64,000 nucleotides of DNA from positions 192,092-256,091 of the forward strand of contig CAYMVY010000002.1 of NCBI GenBank assembly GCA_964394405.1. Direction: 5' to 3'. Below the pieces are notes generated by a model. It saw only the letters and a list, made by a program, of their open reading frames with translations, searched no databases and was not told where the DNA came from. The position numbers were made by a program, and so were the translations under genes. This document shows positions 20,807 to 56,548 of the stretch, one piece after another. Position 1 is the first letter of the stretch. Each line of letters starts with the position of its first letter. This DNA is from an uncultured Gammaproteobacteria bacterium (GTDB taxonomy: Bacteria; Patescibacteriota; Patescibacteriia; Magasanikbacterales; UBA922).

Positions 20807-21022
20807 ATGCCCAATACCATACAGGACCGGAACTCCAATCGGTACGATCTCCCAGAGTTCCCGAAGCGCGGTTCCCTGCGCCACGACGGCATGACCGCCG
20901 CCTCCACCACCTCCCCGTCCAGCAAACGTGGAGGAGAATACCAGGTCGGCCATGACCCGGAAGAGGAGGTCGAACCCACCCAGATGGTCAACCACTTCTT
21001 CGGCCGGGGACGGAGAGGGTAG
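20807..21022 (+). CDS. hypothetical small protein, GC-rich
   Basis: 71 aa; SD AAGGAG 10 nt upstream; promoter-like TTGACA-17-TACCCT at 20683-20711. Confidence 0.3.
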   Translation: MPNTIQDRNSNRYDLPEFPKRGSLRHDGMTAASTTSPSSKRGGEYQVGHDPEEEVEPTQMVNHFFGRGRRG

Positions 21023-21127
21023 GTCGGTTCGCAAGTTTCGAACGCGTACAACCACATACGGGCCACTCTGGTTCCCGCATGACGGAAGTACGCGTTCGGA
21101 CTCTCTCAAAAACGATATTCATTATTC

Positions 21128-21157
21128 AAACGCCTTATGGGCGATTTTTTGTTTTTT
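21128..21157 (+). terminator. intrinsic terminator (copy 1 of a duplicated terminator)
   Basis: CGCC-ttatg-GGCG followed by ATTTTTTGTTTTTT. Confidence 0.6.
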
Positions 21158-21177
21158 AACCTATCCACCCCCTACTC

Positions 21178-21206
21178 TTGACAGCATATTCACTCTATGC
21201 TAGTAT
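21178..21206 (+). promoter_or_regulatory. sigma70-type promoter TTGACA-17-TAGTAT
   Basis: exact -35 consensus, 17-bp spacer, TAnnnT -10. Confidence 0.55.
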
Positions 21207-21292
21207 CTTTTGAAGTTTGGACTGGCTATGCATTCGCTTGCCATGCGACCAGACTTTTTCTGTGACACCTGCGACGAGACAGGAGAGTCCTC

Positions 21293-21478
21293 ATGAAGGA
21301 TCCCCCGATGACCAGCATCAAGGGAAACAATCCCAACATTCCGGCGATGACGAACGGCAACAACCTCGACCGGCCGATGGACGCCGGCACCAAGAAGAAG
21401 GGCACCGACCGCGACCGCTACGCGCGCGCGAAGAAGATCTCGATGAAGGGGCACGGCGGCTCGAAGCCGGCGGCCTGA
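21293..21478 (+). CDS. hypothetical small basic protein, GC-rich
   Basis: 61 aa; SD GGAGAG 5 nt upstream of the ATG; alternative overlapping 98-aa ORF 21217..21513 is low-complexity. Confidence 0.35.
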   Translation: MKDPPMTSIKGNNPNIPAMTNGNNLDRPMDAGTKKKGTDRDRYARAKKISMKGHGGSKPAA

Positions 21479-21517
21479 TCGAGCGCGGCGAGCGAGCTCC
21501 TACCAACCCCTAGACCA

Positions 21518-21677
21518 AAGGAGGTCCTGGTGCGGAAGTACGCAGTGTTCTAGATGGGCTCACACCGAGCCCTCCTCGGCACCTTCCTAGGGCGACAACG
21601 ACGCCGTCGCCCACAACCTCTCAACGGAGGAAAGATGAGGAAGTACGCAGTGTTCTAGATAGGCTCACACCGAGCCT
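21518..21677 (+). repeat. tandem direct repeat (2 x about 42 bp, period 105 bp), each unit = SD + 7-codon mini-ORF M-R-K-Y-A-V-F + stop + GGCTCACACCGAGCC hairpin
   Basis: AAGGAGGtcctgGTGCGGAAGTACGCAGTGTTCTAGATGGGCTCACACCGAGCC at 21518; GGAGGAAAGATGAGGAAGTACGCAGTGTTCTAGATAGGCTCACACCGAGCC at 21626; both in the same frame. Confidence 0.6.
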
Positions 21678-21817
21678 CCCACGCGCCCGCACGCATCCCC
21701 TACCACGACGCAACCAACGGTACGGGAAATGCTTCGGACGCACCTGGCGCCGCGCCCTCGCATGAACTTCGGTTCAAGCGACGGGTGCGGCGCCAGACAC
21801 TCAATTCAATCATTCTG

Positions 21818-21846
21818 AAAACGCCTTATGGGCGATTTTTTGTTTA
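21818..21846 (+). terminator. intrinsic terminator (copy 2, identical core to 21128..21157)
   Basis: AAACGCCTTATGGGCGATTTTTTGTTT. Confidence 0.6.
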
Positions 21847-21861
21847 TATAAGTGTCTTGCA

Positions 21862-21890
21862 TTGACAGAAAGATATAATTATGCTACACT
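21862..21890 (+). promoter_or_regulatory. sigma70-type promoter TTGACA-17-TACACT upstream of the membrane protein gene
   Basis: exact -35, 17-bp spacer. Confidence 0.45.
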
Positions 21891-22058
21891 CTTCCGTTCG
21901 TCTTTGACGAAAGATCTTTACATGAATTTAGCCATTTCCATGCATTTGGTCAGTATTGTGATATTTCAATTTTTGAATTATTGCACAACTGACTAAAAAG
22001 CTGAGTGGTGAAGTTCACTATTTGGTTCATAAGTCAAAATGTCAGCCAGGAGGCAGAC

Positions 22059-23030
22059 ATGTTCGGTAAGCTCTTCGAGGTGTTCAACATCGAGAAGTGG
22101 TCGGGCCTCGGCCTGACGCTTCTCACCTGTGTTCTTCTCATGACGACTGCTCGTGCGCTTCTTGCGCCGGGTGTCGTCGAGTTCCCTTCCGAGCTCGCCT
22201 CGGATGGTGACTACTGGAGTATGATTGCGATGAGCGCACTGCTCATCGCGGTCGATGCCATGCTGATCGTGCTCGTGTCCTGGTCCTCACTCAACACGCC
22301 GAAAGACGTGATGGGTGTCGCCCTCATGGTCGGGTTGACGCATGTCGTCTTCCCGCTCGTGACCTTCGGCCTCACCGCCGGCGCGACCTTCCTCAGCCAG
22401 CACACGGGCCTCCCGATGTGGTTGGGGCAGGGCATCCTCACGGGCATCTACCTCCTCGCGTTCTACTTCGTTGTGTTCCACCTCCGTGAGGTGCATCGCG
22501 GTATCCGCGAGGGCGAGTCGGACAAGCTCAGCTCGGACCAACCCGCGTTCACGCGAGCGTGGCTGCGGGTGATCTGGCCCATCGTGTTTGCGGTCTCGGT
22601 CGACGCCCTTCTGGTGGGACCGGCTAAGATCGCCTTCATGGCCCGCTACACCGAGACGCAGTTCATGATGAGCTTCGTCTTGATCGGCGGGAGCGTGTTT
22701 GTGCTCGTGATGAGCGCTGGCCTCTTGGTCCTCGCCCTCAAGAAGTGGATCGACAACCACGCGCGGATCTCGAGGAAGGTCCACCAGTTCGACTGGCTTG
22801 GGTCACTCCTCCTCGTCCTCGTCTTCATCCACTTCTCGGTCTTCGCCTTGGTGTACGTGCTCTACACGTTCATCCCGAAGGCATGGATCCTCGAACCCCA
22901 GACCATCTGGAGCGCTACCGGCGCCATCTTCCTCCTCTACCTCATCTTCGGACGAGTGGGGGAGATCAAGAAGGCGAGCCTCGAACGGGCTGGACTGGGT
23001 CCGGCCGAAGTCGAGAATGAAGCAGCCTGA
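22059..23030 (+). CDS. hypothetical polytopic membrane protein, GC-rich (about 58% GC)
   Basis: about 10 TM helices; start set at ATG 22059 preceded by AGGAGG-cagac; the ORF-track start at 22005 lacks an SD. Confidence 0.6.
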   Translation: MFGKLFEVFNIEKWSGLGLTLLTCVLLMTTARALLAPGVVEFPSELASDGDYWSMIAMSALLIAVDAMLIVLVSWSSLNTPKDVMGVALMVGLTHVVFPLVTFGLTAGATFLSQHTGLPMWLGQGILTGIYLLAFYFVVFHLREVHRGIREGESDKLSSDQPAFTRAWLRVIWPIVFAVSVDALLVGPAKIAFMARYTETQFMMSFVLIGGSVFVLVMSAGLLVLALKKWIDNHARISRKVHQFDWLGSLLLVLVFIHFSVFALVYVLYTFIPKAWILEPQTIWSATGAIFLLYLIFGRVGEIKKASLERAGLGPAEVENEAA

Positions 23031-49829: not shown

Positions 49830-50225
49830 TTAGAATAATTTCTCAAGCTTTCCTTTTCTTTTCACAATATTTTTGTAATCCCACTGAATTGTCTTTGACT
49901 TCTTGAGCCAGCGTTTGAGTTCACTCACTTTAATCTCCTCAGCTGAATTGTAGAATATTGACGCGTCTTTGAATTTCCCAGTGCCCTTCTCTAGACCTGC
50001 TTCATCAAAATCAGCACCGCTCCAGAACATGAGTCGAATTCCCTTTTTCTGCTTACTATACCCGACTATGGGATTGCCATCGAGAAACCAGACTGGATGT
50101 CTGTGCCAGACTTTATTCTCAGATTTCGGAAGACCTTTGATAATCTCACTAGCCAATGCATTGCAGATTTTCTTGTCTTCTTTCCCTAGTGCTTTGTTGT
50201 ACGTGGTAATGTCTTTGTGTAGCAT
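49830..50225 (-). CDS. DUF1801 (YdhG-like) domain protein
   Basis: start moved to MLHKDITTYNKAL; DUF1801-like core KVWHRHPVWFLDGNPIVGYS; the ORF-track N-terminal extension overlaps another small ORF. Confidence 0.5.
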   Translation of the reverse strand: MLHKDITTYNKALGKEDKKICNALASEIIKGLPKSENKVWHRHPVWFLDGNPIVGYSKQKKGIRLMFWSGADFDEAGLEKGTGKFKDASIFYNSAEEIKVSELKRWLKKSKTIQWDYKNIVKRKGKLEKLF

Positions 50226-50263
50226 AAAAAACTTAAAATAGGCTATAGTATTAGTATAGCATA

Positions 50264-50404
50264 TTATTTTTTCTTTCGAGGTGAAGGCTTCTTTTTCTTG
50301 TAATATCCTGGCCAACATTTGGGGCAGACTGGTAACTCGCTCGAGCGAGTGTATGTGTGGCCGCGGGAGCAGGTTTTTTTGGTGGGGTTGTGGAGGTTGG
50401 ACAT
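50264..50404 (-). CDS. possible small zinc-ribbon protein (46 aa; weak resemblance to ribosomal protein L31)
   Basis: hand translation MSNLHNPTKKTCSRGHTYTRSSELPVCPKCWPGYYKKKKPSPRKKK*; C/H-x..-CPKC; no SD. Confidence 0.25.
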   Translation of the reverse strand: MSNLHNPTKKTCSRGHTYTRSSELPVCPKCWPGYYKKKKPSPRKKK

Positions 50405-50479
50405 AGTTATTTTTTAGCAAATTTATTTACAGTTTTTCTAGGTATAGATAGTTTAAAATATATGTATAATATAACTTCT

Positions 50480-51379
50480 TTACTCTTCATCAAAAAAATC
50501 ATTGTCCATTTCCTTTATACTATATTGTATTTTTATTTGAACACCAACTTCATATTTAATCATCAAATCAGCAAGCTGTTCACCGTCGATTAAAATTATT
50601 TTATGGTTAAAAGCACTTTTTGCTTTATGTATTGCAGAATCATCAAAAATCGAAGTTGTTACAAATATACCTTTACTCACATCACCACTCATTGCTCCAA
50701 TAAAATTTCTAATATCCGGTTCCCTAACTTTATTTTTTTCATTATATCTTTTTGCCTGGATATAAATTTTCTCAAGACCTAATTTGTCTTGACTTATAAT
50801 ACCATCTATTCCACCATCTCCAGATTTTGGTGTTTCTTGAAAATCACCATACCCCATTTTTTGAAATAAAATTAAAACAACTTTCTGAAAAAAATAAGGA
50901 TTAGTGTTGTGCAATTTTTCAAGTAAGTCACTTTTTAAAGTTTCTTGAATATCTCTAAAACCAATATCAATCATGTCTTGTGGAGAAAATTTCTCCGAAA
51001 CTGCTTTACCTATTTCCTCTTTTGTTTTTTCACCTCCTCCAGATTTAAAAGCGACAAAAGATGGGTACTTAAATAAAAATTCCACATCAACACTCGCTAA
51101 ATTTAAGGAAAGAACTTTTTGACCCTCTTTGGTAATTTTTATCTTTCCTCTTTCAGGCTGTTCGACAAGTCCCGCTTTTTTTAAATATGTCCTGCCCCAT
51201 GATACCCTATCAAAAAACCTACTATAACCATTTGATACCGTCTCCTTTTTTTCGTCTTCAGTTAAATTAAAATATTCTTTTTCTAAAATATCTGAAACAT
51301 CTTTAATAGTCCTCATCTGTTCATCACCTAAAACTTTCAATATAGGTAACATTGTCTCATCGAATTTTGGAATTGCCAT
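50480..51379 (-). CDS. mrr: Mrr-family type IV (modification-dependent) restriction endonuclease
   Basis: N-terminal Mrr_N winged helix (MAIPKFDETMLPIL); C-terminal PD-(D/E)xK core GDGGIDGI...QAKRY. Confidence 0.8.
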   Translation of the reverse strand: MAIPKFDETMLPILKVLGDEQMRTIKDVSDILEKEYFNLTEDEKKETVSNGYSRFFDRVSWGRTYLKKAGLVEQPERGKIKITKEGQKVLSLNLASVDVEFLFKYPSFVAFKSGGGEKTKEEIGKAVSEKFSPQDMIDIGFRDIQETLKSDLLEKLHNTNPYFFQKVVLILFQKMGYGDFQETPKSGDGGIDGIISQDKLGLEKIYIQAKRYNEKNKVREPDIRNFIGAMSGDVSKGIFVTTSIFDDSAIHKAKSAFNHKIILIDGEQLADLMIKYEVGVQIKIQYSIKEMDNDFFDEE

Positions 51380-51395
51380 ATCTTTTGTTTTATTT

Positions 51396-52166
51396 CTAAT
51401 TTATTTTCTGAAAAATAAATAAATGTTCGTGCATAATCAAAAGGAAATTGTTTTCTTTTGATCTTTTTACCCAAAAACCTGTTGCCTTGCAATTAAACTG
51501 TCGCTTGATGATATCTTCTTTCAGCGCAAAACCTGTCTGCAAACACTTATCCATTATTTTATATGCAAGCGGCTGATACATCTTGTTGCGTCTCGTATCC
51601 CCCATAAGAATTGCGCAATATTTTCCCTTTTTCAGCACACGAAACAATTCTTTTACTACTTTTCCCATTTCTTCTACAAAAAGTTCAATATCATGGATAT
51701 TAGACAGATCGTCCTCTAGTTTTCCTTCACTGTATTTCACAATATCAGCGTATGGCGGATGTGTGAGTACGAAATCAATCTCTTCATCTTTGATAAAATG
51801 CAAATTTCGAGCATCGCATTTCTTTATCCGCTGTTTTGCTTTATTATCAACCTCAAAATTCAGTGCATTTTTTGTGCGCTCGAGTGCTTCTTCATTCACA
51901 TCAACACAAGTGATATGGCGATTCAATATTTTTGCCTCAATCGCTGTGGTACCACCACCAATCATGCAATCAAGTAAATGATCACCCTCTTTGGAATATC
52001 GCAAAATCAAATTCCGAGCAACCTCTGGTGCCCAGTTTCCACGCCAATCTGATTTGTGTGTTGCCCAGTTTCCACGACGAGGAAATGCCCAAACAGTTGT
52101 GCATTCTAGTTCAAAATTATCTGGGTGAAGTTTTACCTCCTTTATTTTCTGCATTTTCATTACCAA
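51396..52166 (-). CDS. DNA methyltransferase, N4/N6 family (DpnA-like second methylase; 256 aa)
   Basis: SAM motif LLDCMIGGGTTAIEA and catalytic THPPY; 7-nt overlap with the upstream REase gene; length equals S. pneumoniae DpnA (256 aa), figure quoted from memory. Confidence 0.7.
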   Translation of the reverse strand: MVMKMQKIKEVKLHPDNFELECTTVWAFPRRGNWATHKSDWRGNWAPEVARNLILRYSKEGDHLLDCMIGGGTTAIEAKILNRHITCVDVNEEALERTKNALNFEVDNKAKQRIKKCDARNLHFIKDEEIDFVLTHPPYADIVKYSEGKLEDDLSNIHDIELFVEEMGKVVKELFRVLKKGKYCAILMGDTRRNKMYQPLAYKIMDKCLQTGFALKEDIIKRQFNCKATGFWVKRSKENNFLLIMHEHLFIFQKIN

Positions 52167-53026
52167 TTTAATTTACTAAGAACACCATTTTCCACCATAT
52201 TCAAGTTAAACACATACTCATTATGATTATAAGTTTCTTCTAGTGGTCTTTTCGCTGTTTTCCAACCCAATCCATCTGTTATCCATACAAAATCAATATC
52301 TTGAGATTTGAGTTCAGTATATAAATCTCTAAATTCTCCAGCAACTGCTTTTAGTTTTGATCCTCCTCCGTTATAAAAATTAACTTCAAATAATTTCAAC
52401 TTCTTGCTCGAAGGATTAAAGACAGCAAAATCAAAACTTCTCTCAGATTTGTTAACCCGAACATCAATGCCCCACTTATTCCTAATATCTGTTGCTCTAG
52501 ATTGTCTTAAATATTCAAGATTATTTTGTTCACAAAGATTTTCTATATGAGCCTCCACTATTTTTTCCATAAGACTTCCTCCTCGATTTTTTCTACCATT
52601 ACTATCCAGACCAACTTCGACACCAATGACGTAATCAACTAAATTCTTTATTCCCTCTTTTTTAAATAAATTAACCAAACCTGTTTTTTCAAGAAAATTA
52701 AAATACTTTTCCGAAGCACTATCACCCACTTCAGGATTACGGAAATTAAGGAGCTCAACACTACCGTCACTCAAATTAAATATTTCTAATTCTTTTTCAC
52801 GAACTGCTAGTAACACAGGTAATGCTTTTACAATATCAGGATTACTCACAAATAACTTTTTAAACTGTGATTTTAAATCCTCTTTTCCCAAGAGATAATT
52901 CAACTTATTGAGAATAATTTCAAGTTCCGCACCTCCTGCAAAAACTTTCTCCCAATTTACAAAATAATCCCAAGTTTTAATTGAATTTTTAAGCGTAGCT
53001 ATTAAATTTTGAAAATCCATCTTCAT
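52160..53026 (-). CDS. DpnII/MboI-family type II restriction endonuclease (GATC), 288 aa
   Basis: length and gene context (between the Dam-like and the second MTase, as in the dpnM-dpnA-dpnB cassette); the DpnII family is assigned from memory of the family, not by a search. Confidence 0.55.
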   Translation of the reverse strand: MKMDFQNLIATLKNSIKTWDYFVNWEKVFAGGAELEIILNKLNYLLGKEDLKSQFKKLFVSNPDIVKALPVLLAVREKELEIFNLSDGSVELLNFRNPEVGDSASEKYFNFLEKTGLVNLFKKEGIKNLVDYVIGVEVGLDSNGRKNRGGSLMEKIVEAHIENLCEQNNLEYLRQSRATDIRNKWGIDVRVNKSERSFDFAVFNPSSKKLKLFEVNFYNGGGSKLKAVAGEFRDLYTELKSQDIDFVWITDGLGWKTAKRPLEETYNHNEYVFNLNMVENGVLSKLNW

Positions 53027-53029
53027 ACG

Positions 53030-54778
53030 TTAAAACATTTTAATTTGTTTGAATATTTTTTCACCTAAATCACCACCTCTTTTTTTAATTGCCACTTCCG
53101 GATTATCTACAAAAATATTTCTGTATTCACCTAGATCTCGATTAAATTTAAATTTTGATTTTGAATAAATATTTTCAATTTTCTTATCTAATATATCGTT
53201 ACCGGCATCATTATTATCCTGTTCATGCAGTAACGTTAAATTACCAATTTTATTTACAAATCCAGCAACCTGTTCTTTGGTGAACCCCCATTTTACTGGG
53301 TTCTGTGGGAGAATGTGTTCAATATTTGGATCTAAGATAGCTATCCCTCTATCACTAAAATCATAATTCCTCATTACTTCTGTAAGCAGATAATCAATTA
53401 ACTTCGAATCAGACCCATACTCTAGATTATTAGAAAAATTTTTCACAAATTCGTCCATTTTATTCACTAAAGAGAATAATGTTTTAAATTTTTTTCCAAC
53501 TTCTCGCTGATAATCTACTCCGCTATAACGTGTTGCACTCTCACATATAGAAGCAAATATCTTTTCATAATCAGATGGATTAACACTTACAAATTTAGCC
53601 AGTATGGCAAAATTAAGAAGTCTAACAACATCCTCACGGAAATTCCCGGTCTTATAACTTGAATCGTTTAGTTTTTTACTATACAGAGCAAGTAAAACTT
53701 CAAATACTTGCTCTAGTCCGTTTAGATGCCTAAACACTCTTATTATTCTCTTTGTCTTTTCATCTTTTTTTAATAAAGATAAATTTCCATCATAATCTTC
53801 AAATCGAAATCCTATATATATTTGAGCATCCTGGAGTAGTTCTTTCGTGAATTTCAAAACATCATTACCTGATTTTCGCTCAATTTTTTCTTTTTTAATA
53901 ATTTTAAAAAGTCTAGAACTGGAAATAAGCCCATTTCTGGAAATCCAGTAGTGTCTTAGAAATTTCGGAAAAAGAACGGTCTTTGTATTCTCGAATAGAG
54001 ATTCAATTTGACTCCAATTTATTTCAATACTCTCTCGTATACTCCTTGTTTGTGTTGATTTTAATACAGCATTTTTTAATAGATCTGCAACCGAAAGACC
54101 CAAGCCAGTAGAGTTCAGTCCTTCAAAAAGATCATACACGTCATTTTCTGATCTTACAACAATAGCAATAAATTGTACCGATAATATCTTTTGGATCAAT
54201 TTATCTACCTCATCTTCTTTTTTATCTTTTATCTCTTTTTTCACCAAAGTAACAATATATCTAAGATTAGACAGGTATTTAGATTGATTATCATCAAGTT
54301 TTCCATCGAATTTGTCTAAACCAATAACATCTGGGCTTTCTATTAAATTCTGATATATCTCAATTAAATTTTCCTTTCCTGGAATAAGACGGGGATGTTT
54401 CTGTTGTGTTCTAGGGTTTCTCCAATATAAATAGTCATCAACAAGATTAATTAATTCCTTGATAGAGTTAGTAATATATTTCTCCTCATATTGAGAGAAG
54501 ATATATTTAAAAGCAATCAAAAATAAAGAGATTGTTGTTAATCTTTGTTGTCCATCAACAATGACCAGACTATCATCTGACTCTTCAGATGGCTCAAGAC
54601 AGACAAGGTTACCTATAAAGTACCCGTCCTCAGCCTCCACCAGAACTTCCCATAGTTCTCCCACATGAGAAGTCTTCCATGCATATGGTCTTTGGTTATG
54701 GGGCATGGAGAACTTTTTATAAGTATCACAAAGTGTTGAGTAAGTATAGGGTTTAGTATCAACAAAATTATTTATCAT
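53030..54778 (-). CDS. GmrSD/BrxU/SspE-like DUF262 + DUF1524 protein (ParB-like NTPase/nuclease plus His-Me finger)
   Basis: N-terminal DUF262 DGQQR motif (IVDGQQRLTT); C-terminal DUF1524 HxxP (IEHILPQNP). Confidence 0.8.
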   Translation of the reverse strand: MINNFVDTKPYTYSTLCDTYKKFSMPHNQRPYAWKTSHVGELWEVLVEAEDGYFIGNLVCLEPSEESDDSLVIVDGQQRLTTISLFLIAFKYIFSQYEEKYITNSIKELINLVDDYLYWRNPRTQQKHPRLIPGKENLIEIYQNLIESPDVIGLDKFDGKLDDNQSKYLSNLRYIVTLVKKEIKDKKEDEVDKLIQKILSVQFIAIVVRSENDVYDLFEGLNSTGLGLSVADLLKNAVLKSTQTRSIRESIEINWSQIESLFENTKTVLFPKFLRHYWISRNGLISSSRLFKIIKKEKIERKSGNDVLKFTKELLQDAQIYIGFRFEDYDGNLSLLKKDEKTKRIIRVFRHLNGLEQVFEVLLALYSKKLNDSSYKTGNFREDVVRLLNFAILAKFVSVNPSDYEKIFASICESATRYSGVDYQREVGKKFKTLFSLVNKMDEFVKNFSNNLEYGSDSKLIDYLLTEVMRNYDFSDRGIAILDPNIEHILPQNPVKWGFTKEQVAGFVNKIGNLTLLHEQDNNDAGNDILDKKIENIYSKSKFKFNRDLGEYRNIFVDNPEVAIKKRGGDLGEKIFKQIKMF

Positions 54779-54781
54779 ACT

Positions 54782-55798
54782 TTAATAGTTTGTCACTAAA
54801 ACTTCAGTGATCTTCCCTCTATTTGCACTCTTCGAATTTATCGCTCTTCCAGCCTCCACTTTTGAAATTCGAACCCCTTTATGTCCTGAATAAATTTTAT
54901 TGATAAAAGGGGTGTCAGAATTAGAAAGCATTACAAAACAACCACGCTTGTGCAATTCTAAGAACGTATTCCGTAGTTCTACCTGTTCTTTATCAAGAAA
55001 ACTATCTTTTGTATATGATGTAAACGAGGCGGTCTTGCTCACTGGATAGTATGGCGGATCGAAATAAATAAAATCACCTTTTTTTGCTTTTTTCAGAACC
55101 GCTTTATAATCTTGATGCTTTATTTCTACATTCTGCAATGCTTTTGAGACTTTCCTCAGGTTCTCAGCATCACAAATTAATGGATTGGTGTATCTGCCAA
55201 ATGGAACATTGAATTCTCCCCTGCTATTGACTCGGTACATTCCATTGAACCCAGCTCTATTAAGAAAAATAAATCGAGAAGCAATTTGTAAATCCGATAG
55301 TTTTTTTGGATTCTGCGAACGAACTTTCAAGAAAAAATCTTTATCGTATTTATATTTTTTCAAAGACGTAATCAATCCTTCAACATTATTTTTTATTACA
55401 TTATATGTTGTTACCAACTCAAAATTCATGTCCGAAAGAAATGCTTTTTCTGGAAGTAAATCGAAAAAGACTGCGCCACCACCAACAAATGGTTCAAAAT
55501 ATCTTCCTTTTTTTGGATCAAACTTCTCCGGAGGATATAAATCAAGCAATCTAAACTGTTTTAACAATTGACGTTTTCCACCTACCCATTTCACAAATGG
55601 TTTTGGTCGCGCATCAATTATTTTTGCAATTTCTTGTAAAAAATCAGTCGCATTCGACACCATTCCCAAAACACGCTTAGCATAAATAGTATTGATATCA
55701 AAAACTTTTTGGATTTCTTTCACCTTTTGATTATGCGTCATATGTAAGCATGGGTTTACTATGATTTCATAGTACCATATAAACGCTTTTTTGTTCAA
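54782..55798 (-). CDS. dam: Dam-family N6-adenine DNA methyltransferase (GATC-type, DpnM-like)
   Basis: FVKWVGGKRQLL SAM-binding motif, FDPPYY catalytic motif; the ORF-track start is probably about 45 codons too long. Confidence 0.85.
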   Translation of the reverse strand: MNKKAFIWYYEIIVNPCLHMTHNQKVKEIQKVFDINTIYAKRVLGMVSNATDFLQEIAKIIDARPKPFVKWVGGKRQLLKQFRLLDLYPPEKFDPKKGRYFEPFVGGGAVFFDLLPEKAFLSDMNFELVTTYNVIKNNVEGLITSLKKYKYDKDFFLKVRSQNPKKLSDLQIASRFIFLNRAGFNGMYRVNSRGEFNVPFGRYTNPLICDAENLRKVSKALQNVEIKHQDYKAVLKKAKKGDFIYFDPPYYPVSKTASFTSYTKDSFLDKEQVELRNTFLELHKRGCFVMLSNSDTPFINKIYSGHKGVRISKVEAGRAINSKSANRGKITEVLVTNY

Positions 55799-55843
55799 AT
55801 ATTTTTAGGGCACTAAAAACCCACCTTTTTCAGGCGGATTTTA

Positions 55844-55875
55844 GGGGGTTATAGCCCGGCCGGGCAGGGTATCAG
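55844..55875. repeat. direct repeat copy 1: GGGGGTTATAGCCCGGCCGGGCAGGGTATCAG (contains the 12-bp GC palindrome GCCCGGCCGGGC)
   Basis: near-identical copy at 56516..56548; the pair brackets a single gene. Confidence 0.6.
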
Positions 55876-55946
55876 AATGTACCGCTCATGAAAGCCGAAA
55901 TCTGGATTGCCCTTGGTAATCAGTGATAACGAAAACTACCACCAGA

Positions 55947-56441
55947 CTAAGGTACCAAATTCTTCCAAAATTTTTTGCACCTTCTCCATCTTGTACCTAC
56001 AGTAACCTTACTTTTCTTGAATTCGAGACCTCTCACATAACTTGCGTGCACAGAAGTGATCACATCTTTGACATTCTGCCATGTATGTTCTCGATTTTCA
56101 CCAAAATAATTTTGTATGTCTTTGTCGAATACGTCTCCCCCATACACCACTTCTCCGCTTTCTATCTTATCGAAAATACTATATATAAATCGCTCAATAC
56201 TTCTACTTAATCCATTACCCTCACAAGTATCAGGAGCAAATTTGTTATGATCAGTTTTGTTTTCCCGCATACACCCTATGACATACTTCAAGAAGTGCGC
56301 GTCATCGATATTATTATTGAGCTTTTTGCAGCTAGGGCATGGGTAATTCGCGTCTAACGGTACATAAAGATTTCGACATTTTTGACATCGATATTCATGA
56401 TTGATAATACTATTAAACGGTGTGCCACAAAGTAAACTCAT
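55947..56441 (-). CDS. hypothetical protein with an N-terminal zinc ribbon (C-x2-C...C-x2-C)
   Basis: YRCQKCRNLY...YPCPSCKKL; 164 aa; flanked by 32-bp direct repeats, adjacent to the R-M island. Confidence 0.45.
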   Translation of the reverse strand: MSLLCGTPFNSIINHEYRCQKCRNLYVPLDANYPCPSCKKLNNNIDDAHFLKYVIGCMRENKTDHNKFAPDTCEGNGLSRSIERFIYSIFDKIESGEVVYGGDVFDKDIQNYFGENREHTWQNVKDVITSVHASYVRGLEFKKSKVTVGTRWRRCKKFWKNLVP

Positions 56442-56515
56442 ACAATACGACTAACATTGATATAGATACACGTAAATTCTCCAATGCGAAAGTATTTTGT
56501 TCATGCAATAATTCT

Positions 56516-56548
56516 CGGGGGTTATAGCCTGGCCGGGCCGGGTATAAG
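56516..56548. repeat. direct repeat copy 2: GGGGGTTATAGCCTGGCCGGGCCGGGTATAAG
   Basis: 28/32 identity with copy 1. Confidence 0.6.

Follow-up and report, generated by a model that had tools for sequence, protein, structure and literature searches.

A GmrSD-family lineage of the DndI/HEC-06 type associated with type II GATC adenine-methylation cassettes

Introduction

Bacteria of the candidate phyla radiation (CPR, or Patescibacteria) have small genomes and few CRISPR systems. In a member of this group, a stretch of 64,000 nt (contig CAYMVY010000002.1, positions 192,092 to 256,091; hereafter the window) carries on its minus strand, at 50480-55798, five co-oriented, tightly packed open reading frames (ORFs) of 338, 582, 288, 256 and 299 aa. 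In 5' to 3' order these encode a Dam methylase, a GmrSD-family protein with DUF262 and DUF1524 domains, a restriction endonuclease (REase) of the DpnII family, a second methylase (M2) and Mrr. This arrangement raises the question of what a GmrSD-family gene does between the methylase and endonuclease genes of a GATC restriction-modification (R-M) system, i.e. whether its product acts independently of the methylation specified by its neighbours or is tied to it.

GmrSD-family genes are established residents of modification-based defence loci, with RloF in type I R-M, BrxU in BREX, HEC-05/06 in Hma, SspE and DndI as examples. A literature search turned up no GmrSD lineage with a specific tie to cassettes for type II GATC adenine methylation, and a search combining Patescibacteria, restriction-modification and DpnII yielded no paper on CPR DpnII-type cassettes. 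A study of such embedding dealt with Hma, BREX, DISARM and type I R-M but not with type II systems (bioRxiv 10.1101/2024.01.29.577857). Here we describe a lineage of the DndI/HEC-06 type that is specifically associated with type II GATC adenine-methylation cassettes, and weigh what this association may mean.

Our starting point was a sequence-only reading of the window, which had placed five minus-strand ORFs at these coordinates, with a 7-nt overlap of the REase and M2 genes, and had described them together as a composite defence block, all genes co-oriented, in which a DpnII-family GATC R-M system is joined by a GmrSD-family gene and Mrr. The ORFs were all found as given, and profile searches upheld every domain call.

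Relatives of the GmrSD-family protein

The DUF262/DUF1524 assignment held in profile searches, with matches to GmrSD_N (PF03235, DUF262) at E = 8.5e-33 and to GmrSD_C (PF07510, DUF1524) at 4e-19. In the protein, a helical linker connects an N-terminal DUF262 ParB-like NTPase domain to a C-terminal His-Me finger nuclease domain (DUF1524). Its NTPase motif, DGQQR, spans residues 75-79, and the nuclease residues are E487-H488, N513 and N522. D75-R79, H488, N513 and N522 are invariant in 66/66 homologues, and E487 is present in 64/66, with Asp in the other two.

To which branch of the family does the protein belong? Among PADLOC profiles, HEC-06 gave the best matches (7.9e-72, 3.2e-70 and 6.5e-67, near full length), followed by Orf5 (1.9e-60), while mREase_IV matched at 3e-7 over 79 residues only. 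HEC-06 was also the best PADLOC match for the divergent embedded GmrSD proteins of two surveyed loci (L096 and L108). An AlphaFold2 model of the window protein (predicted local distance difference test score 89.6, predicted template modelling score 0.79) was compared with solved structures using Foldseek, and DndI (PDB 9JFL) ranked first at 2.7e-15 (template modelling score 0.47-0.51, ~19% identity), ahead of SspE (8e-9) and BrxU (2e-7). A profile built from 66 family members gave the same ranking, with E values of 8.5e-43 for DndI (9JFL; positions 9-546 vs 7-569), 8.9e-21 for SspE and 5e-4 for BrxU. Judged by these profiles and by the modelled fold, the protein is placed in the DndI/Orf5/HEC-06 branch, far from the BrxU/GmrSD type IV branch. 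An SspE/BrxU-like sensor had been suggested as an alternative in the sequence-only reading; the SspE half of that suggestion points the right way, whereas BrxU is much more distant than DndI. Orf5 takes its name from ORF5 in the dpt cluster of Salmonella Cerro 87 (PMC2978375). From its location, ORF5 appears to be the gene later called dndI, an identity given in neither PMC2978375 nor PMC11662687.

The closest solved relative is DndI of the Salmonella Cerro 87 system IscS-DndBCDE-DndI/DndFGH, a full-length homologue of similar size (~590 aa) with the same DUF262-linker-DUF1524 build. Like the window gene, dndI is encoded between modification and restriction genes, in an operon shared with another effector: it adjoins dndBCDE, has the modification genes on one side and the remaining restriction genes on the other, and shares a transcript with dndFGH (PMC11662687). 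DndI is toxic in the absence of phosphorothioation (PT) and restricts PT-free phage DNA; when it senses PT, its ATPase is stimulated and it lets go of self DNA (PMC11662687). The two differ in their partner modification, which is PT for DndI and adenine methylation (by Dam and a permuted N6/N4 methylase) for the window protein.

Other relatives can be ranged alongside. HEC-06 shares with the window protein the DGQQR and EH motifs, both of which are required for HEC-06 defence (bioRxiv 10.1101/2024.01.29.577857), and both genes are embedded, co-oriented, in a methylase-containing defence system; the host system is Hma (helicase-methylase-ATPase) in one case and a type II Dam/DpnII GATC cassette of a CPR bacterium in the other. 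SspE, of the SspABCD-SspE system, is an effector of the GmrSD family, one that senses the modification made by its own host, and is the second-best solved relative; it differs in being 771 aa long, in sensing PT and in having a nuclease that is inactive without PT. BrxU (from the BREX island of pEFER) and classical GmrSD have the same two domains and are embedded in methylation-based systems, and the idea of complementary cover developed for BrxU is applicable here as well, but BrxU targets modified cytosines and its similarity to the window protein is far weaker than that of DndI. RloF, a DUF262 protein, is likened to the window protein by position only: as cited in PMC4619093, its gene lies between hsdS and hsdR, hence between specificity and restriction genes, of a Campylobacter R-M locus that is type I rather than type II.

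In one of the loci surveyed below (L131:4821-6507), the embedded GmrSD gene is split into ORFs of 352 and 215 aa, a probable pseudogene or else a two-gene GmrS/GmrD form.

Linkage to GATC methylation genes

To see how regularly such proteins keep company with methylases, we collected 11 contexts centred on GmrSD itself and hence free of the bias of an M2 anchor (the window, P0005, P0006, P0013, P0018, P0030, P0034, P0039, P0068, P0073 and P0085; 33-100% identity). In 11/11, the immediate neighbours of GmrSD are adenine-methylase and GATC-type nuclease genes, and GmrSD shares its strand with an adjacent methylase; at the P0068 locus it is the Dam gene itself that is inverted. Six arrangements are represented, with Dam-GmrSD-nuclease-M2 accounting for six cases. 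The others are DpnA-like-DpnII-GmrSD, Dam-DpnA-like-DpnII-GmrSD, Dam-DUF6996/7-M2-GmrSD, integrase-DpnA-like-PD-(D/E)xK-GmrSD and GmrSD-DpnA-like-(inverted Dam)-PD-(D/E)xK. The neighbouring nuclease is variously DpnII, MutH-like, DUF6996/6997, a ~210-aa REase or a ~180-aa PD-(D/E)xK protein. The constant partner of the clade is methylation, not one nuclease.

For background we used distant homologues, comprising a genome set (22-30% identical and mostly non-CPR, among the matches listed) and viral contigs. A GATC-type gene within 6 kb was found for 4/80 genomes and 5/80 viral contigs, i.e. 9/160 in all. The difference from 11/11 gives p = 2.5e-12 in a Fisher test that counts GATC-type genes only, a value that is indicative only, as the lineages are not independent. 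The viral contigs scanned held distant GmrSD homologues only, and no cassette of the window type. Two exceptions in the genome set are instructive. An Ignavibacteria metagenome-assembled genome (MAG) encodes a DpnA-like methylase, a MutH-like protein and then GmrSD, and a Lachnospiraceae MAG encodes a permuted methylase, a double-Dam fusion, an AlwI-family REase and then GmrSD. The site of AlwI is GGATC. These linked loci make it less likely that the linkage merely reflects the presence of one defence island in each small CPR genome.

In a neighbor-joining tree, crude and without support values, the clade that contains the window protein has 11 members, each of which is linked. A tyrosine integrase gene and two small helix-turn-helix genes lie directly upstream of the genes for the DpnA-like methylase, PD-(D/E)xK nuclease and GmrSD at one locus (L176:2376-6749); no other sampled context has an obvious mobility gene.

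Recurrence of the cassette and exchange of its inner genes

With M2 as the anchor, a metagenome scan gave 80 loci, 59 of which have both Dam and M2 (55 after dereplication). All 59 have the same form, Dam followed by one to four genes and then M2, on a single strand. The gene directly upstream of M2 encodes DpnII in 25 loci, a DUF6996+DUF6997 protein in 13, a MutH-like protein in 8, a member of a ~210-aa family in 7 and a ~180-aa PD-(D/E)xK protein in 6. For four of the five families, PADLOC has a matching type II REase profile. The sequence-only reading had seen a permuted gene order and an R-M system split by an insertion, but Dam-nuclease-M2 is the rule in the 59 related loci and is found in Fusobacterium as well. 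Because this order prevails, the lineage is not a rearranged dpnMAB; derivation from the pneumococcal cassette by rearrangement, which the permuted M2 also speaks against, was rejected.

The 55 non-redundant cassettes comprise 36 that are simple, 10 (18%) with GmrSD between Dam and the nuclease, and 9 with other genes in or beside this interval, namely genes for AIPR/AbiU, a DndB/DpdB-like protein (L110), PDC-S18 (DUF5655) and a nested Dcm with its REase, and genes without assignment. The nearest GmrSD homologues (59-69% identity) share the Dam-GmrSD-nuclease-M2 order and lie at chromosomal sites that are unrelated, next to DpnII (L007), a MutH-like protein (L005) or a ~180-aa PD-(D/E)xK protein (L002). 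The full five-gene layout of the window, including Mrr, recurs in L096, with identities of 78% for Dam, 69% for DpnII, 85% for M2, 66% for Mrr and ~30% for GmrSD. Thus an arrangement that had been thought unusual recurs, the GmrSD gene being a lineage-wide partner of GATC methylase cassettes, and we reject the possibility of a one-off insertion.

How do the inner genes evolve relative to the methylases that enclose them? Across 13 cassettes (of which 6 were found via M2 and form a biased subset), identity ranges from 61 to 88% for Dam, from 72 to 90% for M2 and from 22 to 78% for GmrSD. GmrSD identity shows no correlation with that of Dam or M2 (rho ~0), whereas Dam and M2 identities are correlated (rho 0.43), which indicates that inner genes are swapped within a conserved methylase frame. 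Such swapping resembles the cassette exchange known for the pneumococcal DpnI and DpnII systems, as cited in PMC3812788. In CPR bacteria, then, a two-methylase frame is conserved, while the inner nuclease, drawn from five families, and the accessory gene are exchanged like cartridges.

The first gene 3' of M2 is also variable. Among the loci L089-L168, it encodes an AAA_13 ATPase (three loci), an OLD/TOPRIM ATPase, a HerA-like protein, an HTH-ResIII helicase, a 1398-aa STAND NTPase, Dcm, a PD-(D/E)xK nuclease or Mrr, and in other cases a housekeeping protein. The position after M2, where the window has Mrr, is a second accretion point for defence genes.

The frame is not confined to the CPR. 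Fusobacterium vincentii SB055 (L175; NZ_CP084075.1 655137-665865) encodes a Dam of 307 aa, a DpnII of 285 aa, a 272-aa protein with an Mrr_cat-like region and a permuted M2 of 244 aa that is 57% identical to the window M2. Its presence there shows that neither the M1-R-x-M2 frame nor accessory embedding is a CPR-only trait. NZ_CP084075.1 is a 2.1-Mb record from a cultured bacterium, labelled a plasmid in PLSDB and unannotated there.

Two further observations concern the nuclease slot. Its occupation by five unrelated families within a conserved Dam/M2 frame (L089-L168) amounts to cartridge-like swapping of REases, all of which presumably act on GATC. The DUF6996+DUF6997 proteins that fill it, labelled as of unknown function in Pfam, measure 252 aa at L093:3292-4050 and 12 similar loci, and 432 aa, with an added DUF7226, at L177:2933-4231. 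They match PADLOC REase_II PDLC03513 at 8.6e-34 and are candidates for a GATC-specific endonuclease family.

Restriction-modification genes of the window

The Dam gene product matches PF02086 (5e-62) and TIGR00571 dam (3.7e-85) and has the motif FDPPY. In a PDB sequence search its best match was DpnM (2DPM, 6.2e-71), compared to 2.5e-38 for E. coli Dam; by sequence it is classed as a DpnM-type, alpha-class N6-adenine DNA methylase. The length of 284 aa that the sequence-only reading had given for DpnM is borne out by 2DPM. Translation of the window gene probably starts at the ATG at 55741 (319 aa) rather than at the TTG at 55798, since the gene call on a contig from SRR12404947, identical to part of the window, uses this ATG, homologues align from residue ~19-20 and the TTG forms the first three bases of the -35-like hexamer TTGAAC. 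Relative to DpnM, the protein has an N-terminal extension of ~45 aa (residues 20-65, window 55606-55741; the 2DPM alignment begins at residue 60). This extension is kept across CPR cassettes, gave no Pfam match even at E <= 5, and might be a regulatory or DNA-binding add-on.

Membership of the REase in the DpnII/MboI family, proposed from its sequence, was confirmed by a match to DpnII PF04556 at 5.9e-95 that covers essentially the whole profile (positions 1-277 of 278), as well as by PADLOC REase_II at 2.3e-98. It has at least 7,997 homologues at E <= 1e-10; the best 120 are 69-100% identical, and those with names are mostly from CPR bacteria. As a member of this family, the enzyme is expected to cut at GATC and to be blocked by N6-methyladenine (m6A).

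M2 matches N6_N4_Mtase PF01555 at 2.9e-22, as two swapped stretches, and PADLOC MTase_II PDLC03376 at 3.3e-91 over its full length. The AdoMet motif MIGGGTT, at residue 68, precedes the catalytic HPPY at residue 136. By its motif order, with motif I before motif IV, M2 is assigned to the circularly permuted N6/N4 DNA methylases, and between cassettes it is 72-90% identical. Five other loci (L169, L173, L176, L178 and L009) encode beta-class methylases of 266-307 aa with an N-terminal DPPY; those of the first four are 66-70% identical to one another, and that of L009, compared with L178 only, is 61% identical to it. To what we take to be the sequence of DpnA, not a database record and so a lead only, these beta-class enzymes are 51-54% identical over the full length. 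M2 shares with the methylases of L169, L173, L176 and L178 only a segment of ~50 residues, located at opposite ends of the two proteins. The 256-aa methylase had been taken for the counterpart of DpnA; its permuted motif order, the swapped Pfam pieces and the short segment shared with DpnA-like methylases speak against this.

These genes invite comparison with dpnM-dpnA-dpnB of the pneumococcus, which likewise has a DpnM-type methylase, a DpnII-family endonuclease and two methylases per operon. The pneumococcal order is M-A-B (PMC3812788), whereas that of the window is M1-(GmrSD)-R-M2, with two nucleases added and a second methylase that is permuted rather than DpnA. L178 keeps the pneumococcal order (Dam-DpnA-like-DpnII), with GmrSD added at the end.

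The last gene encodes a protein with Mrr_N (winged helix, 1.1e-25) and Mrr_cat (PD-(D/E)xK, 3.8e-35) domains that matches PADLOC mREase_IV at 1.1e-63 (residues 1-298 vs profile positions 1-316 of 317). By domain architecture it is assigned to the Mrr-type type IV restriction enzymes. PDB sequence searches with the DpnII-family nuclease and with Mrr gave no matches.

Candidate role of the GmrSD-like protein and competing explanations

What, then, does the GmrSD-like protein do? The reading we tentatively put first, at somewhat less than even confidence, is that it may be a second restriction effector tied to the GATC methylation of the cassette, DndI/SspE-like rather than type IV. It is suggested by the ranking of homologues, by a linkage to one kind of methylation that survives rearrangement and extends across phyla, and by the precedent of DndI, in which one modification module serves two effectors from one operon. 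A dependence like that of DndI, which is toxic without modification, would explain the strict methylase linkage. The lack of correlation between GmrSD and Dam/M2 identities would be expected if the DNA mark, and not a partner protein, is read.

On this reading, the parts of the cassette would work as follows. Dam and M2 would mark and protect host GATC sites, and the DpnII-family endonuclease would cut GATC where it is unmethylated. The DUF262 NTPase domain of the GmrSD-like protein would respond to the host mark, here m6A in GATC-containing sites in place of phosphorothioate, and would thereby free the protein from self DNA or keep it in check there; its His-Me nuclease would nick or cut DNA that lacks the mark. 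One modification module would thereby serve two unrelated effectors, as DndBCDE does for DndFGH and DndI. Phages that escape the endonuclease, by inhibiting it or by having lost their GATC sites, would still be met by the second effector, and Mrr would cover foreign DNA methylated in a non-host pattern. Mrr would have to tolerate G(m6A)TC, and we infer that it spares this host mark from its co-residence with two adenine methylases. A bolder version, less probable than the reading as such, is a full methylation-based counterpart of Dnd/Ssp, in which m6A at GATC-containing sites is itself read as the self mark and the conserved methylase genes provide the homology through which both effectors are exchanged by recombination.

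Several points weigh against a methylation-dependent effector. All of the support for its mechanism comes from homology and gene linkage. HEC-06 protects E. coli alone, without its native methylase system (bioRxiv 10.1101/2024.01.29.577857). The GmrSD gene is present in only 10/55 cassettes, and the Dam-nuclease slot also holds AbiU/AIPR, DpdB-like, PDC-S18 and nested Dcm R-M genes; since these genes have no plausible methylation dependence, the slot looks like a general embedding hotspot. No locus with a methylase and GmrSD only was found, every linked locus having a classical nuclease. In the tree, three or four other embedded GmrSD proteins are interspersed with unlinked homologues, a hint that capture happened more than once. 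The DndI sensor residue Tyr25 (Y30 in SspE) sits in an N-terminal hydrophobic pocket; at its position the window protein has Asn28, as do the 12 sequences closest to it (13/66), while 53/66 have Phe or Tyr. An aromatic residue at this position is a general feature of DUF262, so the substitution says little either way. As for the HEC-06 assay, its E. coli host is dam+.

The main alternative, only a little less probable, is an independent type IV enzyme of the BrxU/GmrSD kind that cuts modified phage DNA and is embedded for co-transfer or co-expression. Cover would be complementary, DpnII acting on unmodified DNA and GmrSD and Mrr on modified DNA. The founding GmrSD enzymes and BrxU are indeed type IV and act on modified cytosines (PMC10952713), GmrSD-like genes are embedded in BREX, Hma and type I R-M loci, and complementary cover has been shown for BrxU (bioRxiv 10.1101/2024.01.29.577857; PMC4619093). 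The activity of HEC-06 on its own in E. coli is in keeping with such an enzyme, as are the unrelated defence genes at the Dam-nuclease junction and at the 3' flank of M2, the restriction of GmrSD to 18% of cassettes, and its swapping independently of the methylase frame at 22-78% identity, as for arms-race specificity factors. However, the similarity to BrxU is marginal (5e-4 vs 8.5e-43 for DndI), and a free-standing enzyme needs no strict, clade-wide, rearrangement-proof methylase linkage (11/11 vs 9/160). This linkage is also seen in organisms with large genomes and hence goes beyond a single-island effect of small CPR genomes. The sequence-only reading had called both enzymes modification-dependent and type IV, a label that the architecture of Mrr supports; for the GmrSD-like protein it is unproven, as the protein sits with DndI and HEC-06, and DndI restricts unmodified DNA (PMC11662687).

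It is improbable that the protein is a guard or back-up effector like PrrC or RloC, kept in check by the R-M proteins and set free once these are blocked by a phage, in retaliation against anti-restriction. The tight operon structure would suit a guard, and AAA_13 ATPase genes, a family linked to RloC/PrrC-type proteins, flank some cassettes. The gene lies between M and R, as prrC does in type I loci (PrrC embedding is noted in bioRxiv 10.1101/2024.01.29.577857). But physical partnership predicts co-evolution, whereas GmrSD identity is uncorrelated with that of Dam and M2, the adjacent nuclease comes from five unrelated families, and no characterised GmrSD-family member acts in this way. Least probable is a non-effector, whether it regulates the methylase genes as a DndB-like protein or is a passenger gene in decay: DUF262 does occur in the regulator DndB (PMC11662687), a DndB/DpdB-like gene fills the same slot in L110 and the GmrSD gene of L131 is split, but the window gene is full-length, its NTPase and nuclease motifs are invariant or nearly so across 66 homologues, its structure model is confident and the same motifs are required for HEC-06 defence.

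If the methylation-dependent effector is real, one R-M methylase licenses two different nucleases, and if m6A is what it reads as the self mark, the principle of the modification-sensing effector extends from phosphorothioate to the commonest bacterial DNA methylation. Even if the protein is an ordinary type IV enzyme, the survey gives a testable view of how defence is layered in CPR bacteria.

Layout of the locus and its surroundings

Features of the block are collected in Table 1.

Table 1. Genes and putative signals of the five-gene block (window coordinates)
Feature	Position	Strand	Remarks
Dam ORF	54782..55798	-	338 aa from TTG; probable gene 54782..55741, 319 aa from ATG at 55741
GmrSD-family gene	53030..54778	-	582 aa
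DpnII/MboI-family REase	52160..53026	-	288 aa; NCBI gene call, 286 aa
M2 methylase	51396..52166	-	256 aa from TTG; 7-nt overlap with REase gene
Mrr	50480..51379	-	299 aa; 16 nt downstream of M2
Weak promoter-like element 5' of operon	55769..55798	-	TTGAAC (55798-55793), 18 nt, TACTAT (55774-55769); read from sequence
Terminator-like hairpin and U-run	55814..55842	-	End of upstream gene, high-GC edge of island; from sequence and RNA fold

The junctions between the five genes measure 3 nt, 3 nt, an overlap and 16 nt, and at the REase/M2 junction an ATG at 52160 overlaps the REase stop codon. This spacing would be compatible with a single transcription unit. Promoter and terminator scans within the block gave matches at chance level only. 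The upstream element TTGAAC-18-TACTAT may be the operon promoter; it agrees with the consensus at 8/12 positions only, which is why it is absent from the list of the promoter scan. RNA folding of 55800-55900, the region of the terminator-like hairpin, gave -30.3 kcal/mol (z = -2.2).

The block forms an island of low GC. Its GC content is 0.324, compared to 0.419 in the remaining window, with sharp edges at ~50450 and ~55850, and the GC content of cassettes is below that of their flanks in 17/18 loci, which agrees with a mobile module. The island consists of the five genes only, its neighbours being genes for a DUF1801 protein and for a Zn-ribbon-like ORF without family assignment. The flanks were searched for a tRNA gene, an integrase gene or a direct repeat bracketing the five genes, and none was found; nor does the island contain dnd or ssp phosphorothioation genes. 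GATC shows no avoidance that would signal long residence, its observed/expected ratio being 0.98 in the window; inside the island the ratio is 0.65, based on 13 sites only. PADLOC calls along the block are MTase_II, HEC-06/Orf5, REase_II, MTase_II and mREase_IV, and the closest homologues with names belong to Parcubacteria, Yonathbacteria, Moranbacteria and other CPR/Patescibacteria MAGs. The block is horizontally acquired and operon-like, and it is built on the Dam-nuclease-M2 GATC R-M frame that is widespread in the CPR.

Some features of the surroundings are also worth recording. A GC-rich direct repeat of 38 nt (55838-55875 and 56511-56548, 87% identical, with none expected by chance) brackets a 164-aa ORF (55947..56441) immediately upstream of the operon. 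This ORF has CxxC...CxxC motifs and faint zinc-ribbon matches only, with no Pfam family, and together with the repeat it may represent a small inserted unit or a repeated terminator region. On the other side, the gene 3' of Mrr (49830-50420) encodes the DUF1801 protein, and its annotated TTG start adds an N-terminal extension of ~80 aa ahead of the domain, so the true start may lie further inside. Elsewhere in the window, GC content rises to 0.53-0.60 at 21000-23000, compared to ~0.41 in other parts. This stretch gave no Rfam match and hence is not rRNA; it holds an ORF for a 341-aa multi-pass membrane protein (22005..23030) and may be another foreign segment.

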